DNA of 33,695 nt from a virus (Duplodnaviria > Heunggongvirae > Uroviricota > Caudoviricetes), in IMG/VR virus record IMGVR_UViG_2737471863_000001; one strand, given 5' to 3'. The notes beneath the pieces are model-generated. The model was not told the origin of the DNA and searched no databases. It was given only the letters and a program-made list of their open reading frames with translations. Made by a program: the position numbers and the translations under genes. This document shows, piece after piece, positions 8,906 to 15,358 of the stretch (within the stretch, counting starts at the first letter, position 1; every line of letters begins with the position of its first letter).

Positions 8906-9966
8906 GTGGCCACCGCCTTTGTTTTCTTCGTCTTCGCTTTCATTTCCGGCATGTCCAGTGATTCTGGCGGAACCAGCGCCAGAACCGTCATCCGTCCCTG
9001 TGCGCCATCCGTCCAGGTCACCCCGGATATCAGCCAGGTGGTTTTCAGGTTCTGAATGCTGTCGTCGATATCGACAAGGCGGTTGGTCTGCCACAACGGG
9101 CCGCTGTCGCCCTGTTCGCGCCAGCCTGCCACCGTGATTTCCGTCGTGCGGGATTCCCCCAGCATCCGGGCTTTGTACCATTCCCCGCGAATGCTGGCCC
9201 CGCCCACGGTCAGGCTGTCTTCATTGACCAGAATGCGCGGGCGGTAACGGTTAATTTCCGGGTCTTCGGTGATGTACTGGCGACCGCCCACCATCGAGGC
9301 AGGCTGGCTGTCCCACAGTTTGCCACCGGCACTGGTGGTACCCTTGATGATGTACTGGCTGTTACGCTCCCGCCAGCTGAAGCGCCCACGGGCTGCGAGG
9401 ATATTTTTCCCCAGCACCAGTGACACACCCGCGCGAATGGAAGAGGCGCGGGTGATAATCAGGTTACCCGCCCCGTCAGACGTCAGCAGAACGCCGCGCT
9501 GTTTTGCCAGCCGGTCGAGCAGTTCAAAACCCGTTTCACCCTGTTCCAGAACGACGGACGCAAACGCCTCCCCGGTCGGGGTTTCCGTGATGACGGTTAT
9601 CCCGAACGGGCGGCAGACATCAGCCGCCACCTGTTCAAGCCGCACACCTTTCCATTTCCCGGACGAATGCACCACAGAGCAGTCAACCAGGTCGCCGGTT
9701 TTGTCGCGCCCCATGACGCGAATCTCCACGTTATCTGCGTCATAGCTGGGGATAAAATCATCGATATACCCCGTCAGCACGGTATCCGCGCCCAGCCTGA
9801 CCGTGCAGGGTTGCCCCTCACGAATTACGCGCGGTGCCGCTGCCGACCAGCGGGTTGTCACACTGAGATCAAACTCACCGGCAATCGCCTTCAGGGAACG
9901 ACTGACGGACATTTCCGTCCAGCCTTCCCACAGCTTGCCGTTAACGGTAAGAACAACAGATTCCAT
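8896..9966 (-). CDS. baseplate hub / tail protein (Mu Q/gp44-like, P2 gpD-like)
   Basis: 356 aa, ATG 9966 overlapping the P stop codon by one base. Confidence 0.7.
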   Translation of the reverse strand: MESVVLTVNGKLWEGWTEMSVSRSLKAIAGEFDLSVTTRWSAAAPRVIREGQPCTVRLGADTVLTGYIDDFIPSYDADNVEIRVMGRDKTGDLVDCSVVHSSGKWKGVRLEQVAADVCRPFGITVITETPTGEAFASVVLEQGETGFELLDRLAKQRGVLLTSDGAGNLIITRASSIRAGVSLVLGKNILAARGRFSWRERNSQYIIKGTTSAGGKLWDSQPASMVGGRQYITEDPEINRYRPRILVNEDSLTVGGASIRGEWYKARMLGESRTTEITVAGWREQGDSGPLWQTNRLVDIDDSIQNLKTTWLISGVTWTDGAQGRMTVLALVPPESLDMPEMKAKTKKTKAVATWD

Positions 9967-11240
9967 CAGTCGGTAATCTCCACAGGCTGCGTTGGCAGTA
10001 TGAATGACGGATGGCGCAGGCGGTTACGCTGCACGATTTCATCCCGTCGGCTGGTGTCACCATGTTCGCGCCATGCCAGCAATGCGGCAGATGTGGTTGT
10101 GGTCAGCATTACCTGTCGGGTTTCCGGCAGACGGGCGGCACGCTCGCGGGCATCCGTAATCACGGCCTGCCGTAAATCGCGCAGCGTTCGCCACAATGCC
10201 CGCTGGTTATTTTCCACCGCTGCCACCGCCTGCTCATGCAGTTCAGCTGCCAGCGTGTCACCGGCAGATAACGCCGCATCACTGGTATCGAACGTCATCG
10301 AGGCCACGGCATTTGCCTGTCCCAGCAGGGTTTCCAGCACAACCACCTGGCGGAAGTCGTCAATGTTCTTCTGCAGGCTGTCAGATACCGGCTGATAACC
10401 CGGTGACAGCCCGATAGCAAAGCCGGGTTTGCCGTCTGCCACGCTGCCGGGCTTCACGGTGATATCTTCCGGCAGTGCGCCGGTGGCAACCTGTCGGGCG
10501 CGTTCTCCGGCCCACTGATTGCGTAATGTCGTGTAAACCGCCAGTGCTTCGGGTGGTTCCGTCACCAGATCAACCACGCCGTCGATGAACGAGGACAACT
10601 CACTGACCAGACGTCCCGGCGTGGCAATAATGGTTCCGGCCATCTCCTTAAAATGGTTCAGCCTGTCCATCCACTGATTCAGTGCTGCCGGTAGCGTGGG
10701 CAGGTTAGCCACAAGGTTTTCCATATCAGCCAGAAAGCTGTCGGCCATCTCACCCAGCCCGTCAAGTGCGCCGAACCAGTCGCCATCGTCGATGGCAGCT
10801 TTTACCGCATCAATGCCCGTCAGCACTTCCTGCTGCGTGTTATCCGCCGCAGACGGGAACAGGCGCTCGCCTGCCTCAAACACTTCAAAGGTGACATACG
10901 CAATGCCGTCTTCCTCCGTGCTGAGGCGATGGGTGACCTTGCCAACCTGTACGGTCTGTATCCCGAACCACGGGTGGATAAGCTCGCCGGGGCCGGGAGT
11001 ATTAAGCGCGTCTAAAAGGGCGTTTAAATCATCCTGGAAGTTTTTACCTGGCAGCTTTGCGTTAATCTGCTGTTGCCCCGGAACAGCCCCGTTATCATCC
11101 GTCCAGGCGGTTTCGCGCCGGGGATACGCGCGGGGAATCGCTCTGCGGCCACCGGTGCCTTCTGTATCCACCAGAAAGAAGGGAACGCCGCGAAACGAGG
11201 CATCGCGCAGCCCGTCCCATTTGCCTTTGCTCGTTGTCAT
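9966..11240 (-). CDS. tail/DNA circularisation protein (Mu P/gp43-like)
   Basis: 424 aa, ATG 11240 overlapping the tape-measure stop (TAATG). Confidence 0.7.
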   Translation of the reverse strand: MTTSKGKWDGLRDASFRGVPFFLVDTEGTGGRRAIPRAYPRRETAWTDDNGAVPGQQQINAKLPGKNFQDDLNALLDALNTPGPGELIHPWFGIQTVQVGKVTHRLSTEEDGIAYVTFEVFEAGERLFPSAADNTQQEVLTGIDAVKAAIDDGDWFGALDGLGEMADSFLADMENLVANLPTLPAALNQWMDRLNHFKEMAGTIIATPGRLVSELSSFIDGVVDLVTEPPEALAVYTTLRNQWAGERARQVATGALPEDITVKPGSVADGKPGFAIGLSPGYQPVSDSLQKNIDDFRQVVVLETLLGQANAVASMTFDTSDAALSAGDTLAAELHEQAVAAVENNQRALWRTLRDLRQAVITDARERAARLPETRQVMLTTTTSAALLAWREHGDTSRRDEIVQRNRLRHPSFILPTQPVEITD

Positions 11241-13033
11241 TACCCTTGCTCCACGCTGGTGACGCCAGCCTGCGCACTGAGTCTGACGCCGGGTTGATCC
11301 ACTCTGACACTTTTCACGCGGGCGTCACCTTCCACCACCACACGGATTTCCCCCTGCAACTGCTGCGGCACGAATGGCGCATTCTGCGTGGATTGCAGAA
11401 CATCCCACGGAGACGGTGCGGCGATGTTCTTTTTCTCCAGAGAGTTAAACCAGTTCTTGATATCCGTCCATACCGTCGGGCGGTTGTTGTTTTCCTGAAC
11501 CCGTGCGATTAGCGCATCAGCTTCCTCTTTGTTCTTTGGGAAAGCCGAGAGCACCATGTCAAGGAGATTAAATCCTGATGCCGTTTGTGGTGTAACCAGC
11601 GCTGGCGTCTTTGGCCCACGTGGGTTGCGGGAGTTGCGGGGATTGCGCGATGAATCCGGCGCATCCGGCAGACCGCCGGTATTACCATTCATCCCGCCAC
11701 TGCCCATATTAACCACATAAACCGGCATCACACCGGAGCCGAAAACATCTGTAATGCCACCGGGTATTCCTTTGCCTTTCCCTTTGGGATTCATGATGTC
11801 GTGGATGGTTTTACCGAACCTGTACGTCTTACGCACGGCGATAATGCCACCCAGCGCAATTGCCATATATTTACCGACCTGTAACCAGTTCTGGACGGTG
11901 TTCTGGTCAACGCTGTTGAGTGCATCGGCCAGTTCCTGAACGGGTTTTGCCAGTTGCCCTTCAGCAAAACGTTGCCATTCGTTATTCAGTGACTGCATCG
12001 CGGCATTAAAGCCTTCAGCATTGGTTTGTGCGGCCTTTTGCGTGGAACCCAGTTCAATCGTGCCGTAAATCATTTGTTCCATCAGTTGCCGGTTTTCAGG
12101 GTTAAGCAGCGCCTTAATCCCCTGCATTCCGGTCAGATCAAACACATCCTGAAGTTTCAGCGGGTCGTTTTTGGCCCGTTTAAGGATTTCCATCATCAGT
12201 TCATAAGGCTTTTTGATGTTTTTTGTCCCTTTGACAAAAACATCAATGCCGTTTTTTTTCAGAAACTCGATGTTCTTTTTGTCCGACAGGGAGGCATACA
12301 TGGCCTGAATACTGGTTACCGTCTCATCAATGCTGCCTTTATTTTTGGCGAACACCTGAGCAAATGCCCCCATCTGGGCAATGGCTTCCGGTCCCTGATC
12401 CTGAATGATGGAAAACAGTTTCGGGGCAACGCGGGCAACATCAGCAACACTCACAGACCCCACAGCGAACTGCGCATACAACCTGTCCATTATGTTACTG
12501 ACCGCATCAGATCCCCGGATGTTTTTTTCCCAGAACTGCGCCATCAGCCCGGCAGCAACCTGTCCGTCAACACCGAACGCCTGCATCATCAGCCCCATGT
12601 TGCGGAGGTTGTCCACCACATACTGATAATCACCGGTTTTTCCCAGAAGTTCGCTGGCCCCCTGACCAAGCGCAGAGGCATCAATACGAATATCTTTCTG
12701 GTTCGACACATCCCTGATTTTGTCGTGAAGCGTCTTTACCTGTTCAGTGGTTAACTGGGCATCCGTCCCCATCCGGCGCATCTGCGCATCAAAATCGGCA
12801 ACCTGTTTGATGGTAATGCTACTGCCAAGCCCGGCTATCATTGCCGTGTAGCGGTTACCCAGCACGTCAAGACTGCGCCCGGCGGCCTCCGTTGTGGCTT
12901 TGACCAGGCGCATGGCCTTCTGATGGTTCCGGGCGAACTGCGACATGTTTGCGCCGTACTGCCGGGCTTTGGCGGTCAGGTTCCCGGCAAGGTTGATCAT
13001 GATTTCCGTGCTGAGACGGTTACCTGTTGCCAT
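11240..13033 (-). CDS. tail tape measure protein (Mu N-like)
   Basis: 597 aa, Ala/Gln/Gly-rich and largely alpha-helical in composition; lies between chaperone and baseplate genes. Confidence 0.8.
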   Translation of the reverse strand: MATGNRLSTEIMINLAGNLTAKARQYGANMSQFARNHQKAMRLVKATTEAAGRSLDVLGNRYTAMIAGLGSSITIKQVADFDAQMRRMGTDAQLTTEQVKTLHDKIRDVSNQKDIRIDASALGQGASELLGKTGDYQYVVDNLRNMGLMMQAFGVDGQVAAGLMAQFWEKNIRGSDAVSNIMDRLYAQFAVGSVSVADVARVAPKLFSIIQDQGPEAIAQMGAFAQVFAKNKGSIDETVTSIQAMYASLSDKKNIEFLKKNGIDVFVKGTKNIKKPYELMMEILKRAKNDPLKLQDVFDLTGMQGIKALLNPENRQLMEQMIYGTIELGSTQKAAQTNAEGFNAAMQSLNNEWQRFAEGQLAKPVQELADALNSVDQNTVQNWLQVGKYMAIALGGIIAVRKTYRFGKTIHDIMNPKGKGKGIPGGITDVFGSGVMPVYVVNMGSGGMNGNTGGLPDAPDSSRNPRNSRNPRGPKTPALVTPQTASGFNLLDMVLSAFPKNKEEADALIARVQENNNRPTVWTDIKNWFNSLEKKNIAAPSPWDVLQSTQNAPFVPQQLQGEIRVVVEGDARVKSVRVDQPGVRLSAQAGVTSVEQG

Positions 13034-13229
13034 GCTGTTTCTCCAGTTGCTTTATCAGGCGGAACAGCTGCCGCAGGGGCAGCTGTTCCAGGTACTGAAT
13101 GCTGAACCGCTGAGACAGGTTAACCAGCAGGTTCATCAGTGCCGCCGCCAGCGGCATCAGTTCGCCCCCGCGTTGCCACCTCCTCAAGCATTTCATCCAG
13201 CGCAGCAGCTTTGGTGCTGATAAGCTCAA
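13020..13229 (-). CDS. overlapping extension ORF of the tail assembly chaperone, reachable by a -2 (equivalently +1) ribosomal frameshift
   Basis: ORF in codon phase 2 overlaps the 3' end of the chaperone (phase 0) and ends 13 nt inside the tape-measure gene; G-run CGGGGGCGA at 13162-13170 allows tRNA-Gly to re-pair GGG to GGG two bases back. Confidence 0.45.
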   Translation of the reverse strand: MSLSAPKLLRWMKCLRRWQRGGELMPLAAALMNLLVNLSQRFSIQYLEQLPLRQLFRLIKQLEKQHGNR

Positions 13230-13515
13230 GGTCTGCCGGGTGGAGCATTCGCAGCTGTTTCATGTCCAGCGGACCGGGGATATTGCCGATGGCCGCAACC
13301 TGACGGCGCATCATCTCCAGCCCCATCAGCACTTCAGAGCAGTAGGCCACCGCCTTTCCGTTCCCGCCCATGACGACGCGTTCTGCGGCCAGTTGTGCAT
13401 CAATCACATCACTGGCGGTCAGTTCGCGCAGCTTCACGGTTTTATGCAGGGTTTCATCTGCCGTGCCTTTGCCGGTCAGAAGCCCGTGTTTCAGTTCAAA
13501 TTCCATTTCAGCCAT
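13120..13515 (-). CDS. tail assembly chaperone (short product)
   Basis: 131 aa, ATG 13515; sits between tube and tape measure genes, the conserved chaperone position. Confidence 0.6.
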   Translation of the reverse strand: MAEMEFELKHGLLTGKGTADETLHKTVKLRELTASDVIDAQLAAERVVMGGNGKAVAYCSEVLMGLEMMRRQVAAIGNIPGPLDMKQLRMLHPADLELISTKAAALDEMLEEVATRGRTDAAGGGTDEPAG

Positions 13516-13516
13516 G

Positions 13517-13873
13517 TCACACCTTCACGCATTTTTCACCGATAAAGTTCGCACTGATGGTGCCGGAATCCTCGTCCAGCTCCGCCGGGTTATCCGTGGC
13601 GGACCCCGTCATCATGTAGTTCAGGCCGTTGTCGCCGTAGAACATCACCGTGACGTCTTCCCAGCTGCTGATTTCAATCACGTCCATATCCGCTGCCGCT
13701 GCGATGGTCACCTTGATGGACGGCGAGGCCATCTTGCTGGAGATACCCCAGACCTTGCCGCCGCCCATATGCTGGGTGCGACTGAAGCCGCCCGGATTCA
13801 GCGTGGATTTCCCCTCGGTTTTAATTTCGCGGCCATTCACGCGAATGGTCGCCATGCCAAGAATTTTTGCCAT
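13517..13873 (-). CDS. tail tube protein (Mu M-like)
   Basis: 118 aa, ATG 13873 with AAGGGGG SD; directly follows the sheath gene. Confidence 0.75.
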   Translation of the reverse strand: MAKILGMATIRVNGREIKTEGKSTLNPGGFSRTQHMGGGKVWGISSKMASPSIKVTIAAAADMDVIEISSWEDVTVMFYGDNGLNYMMTGSATDNPAELDEDSGTISANFIGEKCVKV

Positions 13874-13882
13874 GCGGCCCCC

Positions 13883-15358
13883 TTAAAGTTTGAACTGAAT
13901 CAGGCCTGCCAGCACACGCAGCTGGTTCACCAGATTCGGGTGGCAGATAAAGTTCAGGCGGTTTTTATCACTGCTGTCGCGTGTCACCTGAAGCGTGTCC
14001 TTGTAATCGCTGAAGTTCTCCACAAGGCCCGCAGGAATAAGTTCGGTCTGGCAGATATCCAGCAGCTCTGCGGTGCACAGCTTCGGCGTCATCACCGGTT
14101 GCCCCGCATCCAGTGAGTCCAGCACGTCATCATCTGCCAGCTTGTGGCGCGGATAACGGTTCGTGAAACGGTTTTTGATGATGTAACGGATACGGCCCAG
14201 CGTGGCGGGGGACTGCACATCCAGGTACGACACATCCGCATCACCGTACTGGTTAACCCGGTACATGGTGATTTCACGCTCGATGCAGACGTTATCCCCG
14301 GCGTCCACCATGTGCGTGGCAATGCCGTCATGCAGCAGCAGGTTACGTTCCGGCATATCCCAGCGAACATTACGCGCAGGCGGCAGAATGCCGGTCAGGA
14401 CCAGCGTCTGAAGCGGACGCGCCGGGTCAATGGCAAGGTGATACGCTGCCGTTGCGCCGTATGACGCGGCCCACATCCACGCCGGGTGCGGTGACAGGTT
14501 GGTGCCGATACAGCTAATCAGCCAGTCATTGCGGGTTTCACCAAACGTGCCTGTCTCGCCGTGTGTGCCACGAAACGCCGTCCACAGCTGCGCCTCCATC
14601 ATTTTGAGCGGCCCCCAGCGGTTCAGCAGTTCATCACGCAGGGTGTTCAGGCTTTTCGTGTCGGTGAACGGGGCGATGATATCGGTAAACCACTCCGGGC
14701 CGATGGCCGCAACGGCCTCTGCCATTTCCGGTGTCCCGGTGCCGCCGGTAAACGCAGTTGCGGTCACCTTCACACCTGCCGGGAAGGCTTCACCGGTGTA
14801 GTAGTTCAGGCGAACGTCGGCACCGTTGCCGGTGACGCCGTGCCAGTTCACGGTCAGCTCCACGGTATCCGTGGCATCATCCTTCACCGCAGCGGCCACC
14901 TGCGTGGCAGGCTTTTTCGTCACCGCATCAGCAATGGCTTTTGCAATGTTTTCCTTCGTAGCCCCGGCGCTCACGCTCACCTGAACGGACACACCGTTAA
15001 TCAGCAGTGCCACCGTTCCGGCTTCAGTCGCTGTCCCCAGCACGGTCAGCGTGGCTTTTGCGGCCGCGCCTTCAGGCGCGGCAACCGGCATTGCCCAGGT
15101 TTCCGTATACGTGTTGGCACGACGCAGCATTTTGAGCATTTCAGCCAGCATCGACCCTTTGCCATAAAGCTGGTCTGCCTGGCTGTCACTGGTGATGCGG
15201 GTCAGTGACAGGGCGTCTGCGCTGCCGGACGATACCGCATGGCCCATGACCAGAATTTTTCGGCTTTGCGCGGATGCACCATCCAGCGCCTGTGAATTGT
15301 CGATATCGATCCAGACAAGCGGGACGCGGATATCATCAGGAATTGAACCCAGCGACAT
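13883..15358 (-). CDS. contractile tail sheath protein (Mu L-like)
   Basis: 491 aa, ATG 15358; size, composition and position typical of myovirus sheath. Confidence 0.85.
   Translation of the reverse strand: MSLGSIPDDIRVPLVWIDIDNSQALDGASAQSRKILVMGHAVSSGSADALSLTRITSDSQADQLYGKGSMLAEMLKMLRRANTYTETWAMPVAAPEGAAAKATLTVLGTATEAGTVALLINGVSVQVSVSAGATKENIAKAIADAVTKKPATQVAAAVKDDATDTVELTVNWHGVTGNGADVRLNYYTGEAFPAGVKVTATAFTGGTGTPEMAEAVAAIGPEWFTDIIAPFTDTKSLNTLRDELLNRWGPLKMMEAQLWTAFRGTHGETGTFGETRNDWLISCIGTNLSPHPAWMWAASYGATAAYHLAIDPARPLQTLVLTGILPPARNVRWDMPERNLLLHDGIATHMVDAGDNVCIEREITMYRVNQYGDADVSYLDVQSPATLGRIRYIIKNRFTNRYPRHKLADDDVLDSLDAGQPVMTPKLCTAELLDICQTELIPAGLVENFSDYKDTLQVTRDSSDKNRLNFICHPNLVNQLRVLAGLIQFKL

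Follow-up and report, generated by a model that had tools for sequence, protein, structure and literature searches.

Phage lambda encodes two tail assembly products, gpG and gpGT, immediately before its tape-measure gene. The two share a common N-terminus and their ratio is fixed by a low-efficiency frameshift; both act as chaperones and are not found in virions (PMC5009743). In this siphovirus, the shift is in the -1 direction and takes place at G GGA AAG, a heptamer of the X XXY YYZ type. The contractile-tailed phage P2 also has a chaperone pair upstream of its tape-measure gene, gpE and gpE+E', and makes it by means of a -1 shift on a T-run. A cellular example is provided by the E. coli dnaX gene, where a 5′ Shine–Dalgarno (SD)-like element, a slippery site (A AAA AAG) and a 3′ hairpin together make up a -1 signal with an efficiency of ~50%.

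Phage Mu belongs to the known natural cases of -2 frameshifting (PMC5009743; PMC2628397). Production of the FS-gp41 fusion from the Mu gp41 gene occurs with an efficiency of ~2.2% (PMC3498833) and the Mu 10-mer alone gives 14% in a purified in vitro system (2025 preprint, bioRxiv 10.1101/2025.10.02.679949). An earlier note on the DNA described here had named Xu, Hendrix and Duda (2004) as the source for the Mu -2 shift, a citation that secondary papers show to be correct. The joined Mu_56 coding sequence in GenBank entry AF083977.1 carries the remark 'verified -2 translational frameshift in PMID 15469818', and the conceptual -2 product (..QERG-GEWL.., 188 aa) is identical both to Swiss-Prot P0DJY4, entitled 'Probable tail assembly protein FS-gp41', and to UIW09302.1. 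No record of a +1 version of the Mu product is present in the protein databases.

The locus analysed here lies in a viral sequence of 33,695 nucleotides (IMG/VR record IMGVR_UViG_2737471863_000001), the whole of which is referred to below as the window. We consider it very probable that the locus is the gp41-type chaperone gene of a Mu-like prophage in which a -2 shift on a GGG codon yields a 165-aa fusion protein. Such an arrangement would resemble that of lambda in its two products with a common N-terminus, its low-efficiency shift fixing their ratio and its position just before the tape-measure gene, but there is no detectable sequence similarity between the two and the lambda shift is of the -1 heptamer type. 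P2 is a contractile-tailed phage with its chaperone pair upstream of the tape-measure gene, and the window protein scores on the Pfam family PF10109, but the sequence relationship is distant.

A Mu-like tail module in Escherichia

The window represents an Escherichia prophage of the transposable, Mu-like kind, encoding elsewhere MuA- and MuB-like proteins, a terminase, portal, major head, baseplate and tail fibre proteins, and a Mom-like protein. Of 5426 complete E. coli genomes, 46 contain near-identical copies of the prophage (95–99%), and the family is found in Shigella and Salmonella too. A DNA-level search of phages identified Klebsiella phage Kp4866-3 as sole relative (74% identity), with no similarity to Mu, whilst a single-protein search of genome contigs returned zero confirmed loci.

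The contractile-tail module is encoded on the minus strand in the order sheath, tube, chaperone, tape measure. The 491 aa tail sheath gene (13883..15358; PF04984 and PF17482, phrog_165) is followed by that of the 118 aa tail tube protein (13517..13873; PF10618 Tail_tube, E=4e-38), which lies directly upstream of the chaperone. The tape measure protein (597 aa; phrog_973 tail length tape measure, E=1e-127) is encoded from an ATG at 13033-13031 (gene 11240..13033). Between tube and tape measure lies the frame-0 chaperone ORF (13120..13515), which encodes a 131-aa homologue of Mu gp41. This ORF starts with the ATG at 13515 and ends with a TAA at 13122-13120, and the C-terminus of its product reads ..EEVATRGRTDAAGGGTDEPAG before the stop. 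The protein matches the Pfam family PF23746 ('Gp41_Mu, tail assembly protein gp41') with an E-value of 3.2e-37 and a score of 127 bits against a cutoff of 27. A weaker match is to PF10109 (Phage_TAC_7, E=1.6e-7) and the protein is assigned to phrog_508, tail assembly chaperone; the exact 131-aa protein has been recorded from E. coli and Salmonella. The earlier note had proposed a tail assembly chaperone ending at 13120: the Gp41_Mu match and the position between tube and tape-measure genes bear out the identity, and rechecking the minus strand places the TAA at 13122-13120.

When translated DNA is compared with Mu (tblastn), identity to gp41 is 50% across residues 6-100. The two genes belong to the same Gp41_Mu family and occupy the same slot between tube and tape-measure genes, but they differ in that overall protein identity is ~39%, with no match at the DNA level, and in size: the window chaperone is 131 aa long and that of Mu 144, with fusion products of 165 aa (predicted) and 188 aa respectively.

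The slip site and the shifted reading frame

[quoted passage not shown] The same 9-mer is found in the same phase in Mu, where the 3′ end of the gene reads ..CAA GAA CGG GGG CGA GTG GCT GCG GTG CCG GAA TGA. At this site, tRNA-Gly on the GGG at 13167-13165 can re-pair with the GGG at 13169-13167. The site and codons given in the earlier note for a re-pairing from GGG to GGG two bases upstream are confirmed.

An overlapping ORF (13229-13020, minus strand) is offset from 13515 by 286 nucleotides, or 1 modulo 3, and so lies in the +1/-2 frame. This frame is open from the G-run through 13020 and, read from the G-run onwards, gives GGELMPLAAALMNLLVNLSQRFSIQYLEQLPLRQLFRLIKQLEKQHGNR followed by a stop. 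After a -2 shift the extension would run from GGC GAA CTG to TAA (13020..13166; GELMPLAAALMNLLVNLSQRFSIQYLEQLPLRQLFRLIKQLEKQHGNR), comprising 48 residues plus the stop and matching phrog_38797 with an E-value of 1e-42. Its TAA (13022-13020) falls within the tape-measure ORF, giving an overlap of 14 nt with the stop codon included; the coordinates and frames that had been given for an ORF of the other phase running into the tape-measure gene are therefore right. The predicted fusion, join(13515..13165, 13166..13020) on the minus strand, is 117 + 48 = 165 aa long, as against 164 aa for a +1 product. Two estimates in the earlier note need correction here: the fusion had been put at ~163 aa, and it had been described as ~48 residues longer than the unshifted product, whereas 48 is the number of residues in the new frame and the gain over the 131-aa protein is 34 aa. 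The predicted 165-aa protein is absent from public protein sets.

A -1 frameshift of the lambda G/GT type, with a heptamer and an open -1 frame, is rejected because the -1 frame is closed two codons past the G-run. The first -1-frame TGA lies at 13157..13159 on the minus strand and the product of a -1 slip would be a dead end of 119 aa (..TRGAN). The earlier note had likewise held the -1 frame to be closed and had attributed this to TGATGA at 13138-13133; that sequence is present in the -1 frame, but lies further on than the TGA at 13159-13157 that closes it.

Similarity to Mu extends into the shifted frame. BLASTP aligns residues 6-157 of the predicted window fusion with residues 26-179 of Mu FS-gp41 (E=4e-25), through the RGGE junction, and both this alignment and a multiple alignment reach into the extension and include an LPL(R/S)..F motif. 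The two loci share the CGG GGG CGA site and its phase, a closed -1 frame and, in the +1/-2 frame, an extension of ~50 codons that carries the LPL(R/S) motif. Despite similar length and the shared motif, a profile built from the extensions of other family members gives the Mu extension a statistically weak score of 7 bits, and the endpoints differ, with the window extension overlapping the tape-measure start by 14 nt and that of Mu ending 14 nt short of it. Since the -2 rule reproduces P0DJY4 exactly, the junction model transfers directly from Mu. Judged by sequence, the window pair is orthologous to that of Mu, whose gp41/FS-gp41 -2 frameshift is a known recoding event cited in textbooks, but it has so far escaped annotation. 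The earlier note's proposal of a Mu-type -2 shift at the G-run is supported by the shared site, phase and family, with the -2 direction here taken over from Mu.

By analogy with Mu, we infer production of the fusion by the window prophage, a shift by -2 and not by +1, and what its efficiency would be. On this model, the majority of ribosomes would continue to the TAA at 13122-13120 and produce the 131-aa protein, whilst a small fraction (~2% in Mu) would slip with peptidyl-tRNA-Gly on the GGG at 13167-13165. With this codon in the P site and a slow CGA in the A site, the tRNA would detach and re-pair perfectly on the GGG at 13169-13167; CGA is poorly decoded, through an I:A wobble pair, and is rare in E. 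coli. Decoding would then restart at the GGC at 13166-13164 and proceed to the TAA at 13022-13020, yielding the 165-aa fusion (..ATRG-GELMPL..). The 48-residue C-terminal extension would be the counterpart of the lambda T domain and of the extension of Mu FS-gp41. If the analogy with lambda G/GT holds (PMC5009743), the tape-measure protein would be coated or bound by both products, with recruitment of tube subunits falling to the less abundant fusion.

The conservation of the site can be followed well beyond Mu. In 11 out of 11 phage or prophage loci, each of 2-4 kb, the 8-mer GGGGGCGA is present a single time, in the same phase and at the homologous codon. These loci are the window, two E. 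coli prophages, Klebsiella Kp4866-3, Mu, a Mu-like element borne by an Stx phage, Shewanella MuM16-2, Vibrio martha, Vibrio 1.028.O, Alteromonadaceae B23 and Pasteurella Pmp9. Further loci were retrieved from IMG/VR with an N-terminal peptide pattern, [IFL]DA[QE][LAW][AE][AS]E[KR], in which the slip site plays no part, and GGGGGCGA was in phase at all 80 of them (76 unique), down to 47% identity. Across 87 unique relatives, reaching ~40% protein identity, the sequence (C/A)GGGGGCGA, i.e. (C/A)GG GGG CGA, is in phase without exception. The occurrence of the site at a homologous codon and phase is far above chance. A +1/-2 extension of 45-55 codons is present in 85 of the 87 unique loci, the exceptions being L059 (21 codons, cut short by its contig end) and L084 (33 codons); apart from these two, the IMG/VR loci have 45-51 open codons in this frame. 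Past the slip site, the relatives have frame-0 tails of 2 to 14 residues, and their -1 frame stays open for 2 to 36 codons. Searching the literature for GGGGGCGA returned only an unrelated listing of ribosome-binding sites.

The pattern of nucleotide variability was measured on a 44-sequence alignment of the enterobacterial clade. On the 3′ side of the site, position 3 of the +1 frame is the most variable (0.23-0.27) and position 2 the least variable of the +1-frame positions (0.05-0.08), a periodicity that is seen both within the overlap and beyond the gp41 stop; the lowest variability within the overlap (0.047) is that of the frame-0 third position. Codon-position variability therefore follows the +1 frame 3′ of the site, indicating that selection switches frame at the G-run, and the new frame is under purifying selection. 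A pseudogene or a sequencing error is ruled out by this coding periodicity, together with the presence of the same arrangement in all relatives. In the CGA codon, a change from C to A would be synonymous in both frames (AGA for Arg, GGA for Gly), yet it was never observed, which hints at selection on the nucleotides themselves; as the sequences are related, this is suggestive only.

These observations bear on annotation. RefSeq calls a separate 45-aa hypothetical protein in place of the fusion. In current annotation of the prophage family, a stand-alone 'hypothetical protein' or a gap stands where the coding sequence of the 165-aa frameshift product ought to appear as a join. Because the 8-mer is invariant within a wide family whose members reach beyond enterobacteria to Vibrio, Shewanella and Pasteurella, it provides a simple annotation rule. 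Whilst current understanding is not overturned by what is seen in the window, three things are added to it: the family-wide invariance of the 8-mer, a widespread GGAG element with no counterpart in Mu, and the systematic mis-annotation of the extension.

Other routes to the shifted frame

The separate 45-aa call raises the question of whether the downstream ORF is translated on its own, from the ATG at 13157-13155 with the G-run as SD sequence and with no frameshift at all. The PGAP annotation contains precisely this ORF, labelled a hypothetical protein, and records of it exist for at least 1000 contigs; moreover, the ATG lies 7 nt 3′ of GGGGG, a workable SD spacing, and an ATG or GTG is found at the same codon in 46 of 80 unique loci. 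In 17 of the 80, however, no start-like codon lies within 12 codons of the site, and elsewhere it is found at codon 3, 6 or 11. Mu lacks such a start codon yet makes the fusion, the shifted frame shows conserved residues, G-G-(D/E)-(L/W), ahead of the ATG, and the invariance of the 8-mer goes well beyond what an SD sequence requires. Independent initiation is in our view improbable as an explanation of the locus, compared with the -2 shift.

Ribosomes could also enter the same frame by a +1 slip, or by occlusion of C13164, which would give a 164-aa fusion with one glycine fewer. With a rare CGA as the A-site codon, +1 events would be favoured too, as in hungry-codon shifts, and reporter assays cannot tell +1 from -2. 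The pairing argues otherwise: tRNA-Gly(CCC) on GGC would be mismatched at the wobble base, where the -2 slip offers three perfect pairs. The two Gs 5′ of GGG, which a -2 shift requires and a +1 shift does not, are kept in all 87 loci as (C/A)GG, and curators list the Mu product as -2, extra Gly included. A +1 event is thus very unlikely to be the route taken. The two products differ by one glycine, the predicted junction peptide being GGELMPLAAALMNLLVNLSQR for -2 and GELMPLAAALMNLLVNLSQR for +1, and the +1 junction tryptic peptide (GELMPL...) would be 57.02 Da lighter than its -2 equivalent (GGELMPL...). The frame might instead be changed in the transcript, if RNA polymerase were to stutter on the G5 run so that one G was lost or two were gained, with normal translation to follow. 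G5 is a homopolymer run and transcriptional slippage is a known alternative route to fusions of this type (PMC5009743). Against it, five Gs are fewer than in known slippage runs, and both the CGA that invariably follows the run and the SD-like element ahead of it are features of the ribosome level. Productive transcriptional slippage in bacteria is known from A or T runs of ~7-9 or more. In addition, the Mu 10-mer shifted frame in a purified translation system, albeit one coupled to transcription, and we regard polymerase stuttering as a highly improbable origin of the fusion.

Candidate stimulatory elements around the slip site

Returning to a -2 shift on the ribosome, pairing on the G5 run would permit a -1 slip equally, and the upstream GGAG sequence and the CGA codon are candidate determinants of the rare -2 direction. 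The dnaX layout may apply to the window, where putative elements flank the slip site on both sides, although dnaX differs in being a cellular gene with a -1 shift on A AAA AAG. The candidate 5′ stimulator is an SD-like sequence, GAGGAGGT (13178..13185, minus strand), with a GGAG core at 13183-13180, 12 nt 5′ of the GGG codon; this spacing resembles that of the dnaX 5′ stimulator. At this position, ~96% of 80 unique loci are predicted to form an anti-SD duplex of -4 kcal/mol or stronger, as against 9% gene-wide, and 42 of 46 distinct upstream sequences have a GGAG or GAGG core at a distance of 11-13 nt on the 5′ side of the GGG codon. The core is kept through G-ending codons for varied residues (TCG, ACG, GCG, CAG, AAG or GAG) followed by GAG or, by an alternative codon route, through GAG followed by GCN. 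Part of the signal could be caused instead by a conserved Glu. The upstream GGAG element is missing in Mu and in the Mu-like element of the Stx phage.

On the 3′ side, a small GC hairpin (TGCCG...CGGCA; 13140..13156, minus strand) begins 5 nt after the CGA and is a possible clade-specific stimulator. It has 7 bp in the window's own fold, and its stem is invariant in 44 enterobacterial relatives, with zero covariation, but is not conserved family-wide. The window differs here from Mu, which has neither the GGAGG found 12 nt upstream nor the GC hairpin that starts 5 nt downstream. Applied to 17 diverse loci in search of a family-wide 3′ RNA structure, RNAalifold predicted zero pairs. The best local hairpins of distant relatives were rejected as stimulators, lying at inconsistent distances of +7 to +99 nt. 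With Rfam, nothing in the window reached the gathering score and the sole match in 12950-13300 was at chance level (E=0.11).

We infer roles in the shift for the slow A-site CGA, the upstream GGAG element and the small 3′ hairpin. It is conceivable, if rather doubtful, that most phages of the Gp41_Mu family carry a composite, dnaX-like -2 signal made up of GGAG or GAGG 11-13 nt 5′ of the slip codon, CGA in the A site and, in enterobacteria, the 3′ GC hairpin. Were this so, Mu, the sole case studied, would be an atypical, minimal version, and the prophage clade might shift more efficiently than the ~2% of Mu. The clade would then offer a natural system for examining how tension from the 5′ SD element, together with a hungry codon in the A site, selects -2 over -1 on G5.

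A second, longer hairpin lies within the extension (13060..13090, minus strand) and ends 27 nt before the tape-measure ATG, with a 13-bp stem formed by GGAACAGCTGCC and GGCAGCTGTTCC around a CCTGC loop. The slip site is 72 nt away, too great a distance for the hairpin to stimulate it. The region has a z-score of -4.96 and, in the 44 sequences, 98% of cells are paired and compensatory changes are seen in three pairs.

Conserved elements on either side of the slip site

At 13178-13185 on the minus strand is an SD-like element whose GGAG/GAGG core sits 11-13 nt 5' of the shift codon, with counterparts in the related loci L005-L091. Of the family's 46 distinct upstream sequences, 42 retain the core, via G-ending codons; Mu itself is without it.

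On the 3' side, a small GC-rich hairpin (13140-13156, minus strand) begins 5 nt past the CGA codon of the slip site. Its stem is invariant across the enterobacterial clade, within which no covariation was seen, and this hairpin was not found in distant relatives. Hairpins of 10-12 bp, starting 12-37 nt past the slip site, are predicted in several of these (Shewanella, Vibrio and Alteromonadaceae phages and uncultivated IMG/VR contigs; loci L006, L008, L009, L070, L079 and L080), where they span about +12 to +73 nt. Among these six loci, hairpin position 3' of the slip site varies by lineage.

A second hairpin within the extension

Inside the frameshift extension itself, at 13060-13090 on the minus strand, lies a perfect 12-13 bp hairpin (GGAACAGCTGCC/CCTGC/GGCAGCTGTTCC), with the tape-measure ATG 27 nt further downstream. 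In the 44 enterobacterial relatives pairing is 98%, with compensatory changes at three pairs; at the protein level these same changes bring two substitutions, E to Q together with F to L.

The extension in public records

The extension (13020-13157, minus strand; 2244-2381 in the related locus L003) appears in RefSeq/PGAP as a separate 45-aa 'hypothetical protein' or is unannotated, and the predicted 165-aa fusion has no entry in public protein sets. In E. coli RM11911 the 45-aa protein is WP_001127483.1, the exact sequence of which is present on at least 1000 contigs.

The prophage as a whole

The entire window (1-33695) is a near-complete Mu-like transposable prophage, read from the minus strand; its first and last ORFs reach right up to the ends of the window. 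Minus-strand genes include those for MuA-like (33695-31707) and MuB-like (31668-30730) proteins, terminase (23435-21900), portal (21903-20332), major head (18399-17494), an 874-aa tail fibre (4781-2157) and a Mom-like protein (1369-623). In the baseplate region, two long minus-strand ORFs (8369-9181 and 8896-9966) have a listed overlap of 286 nt, which probably reflects nothing more than an upstream alternative start reported for the downstream gene.
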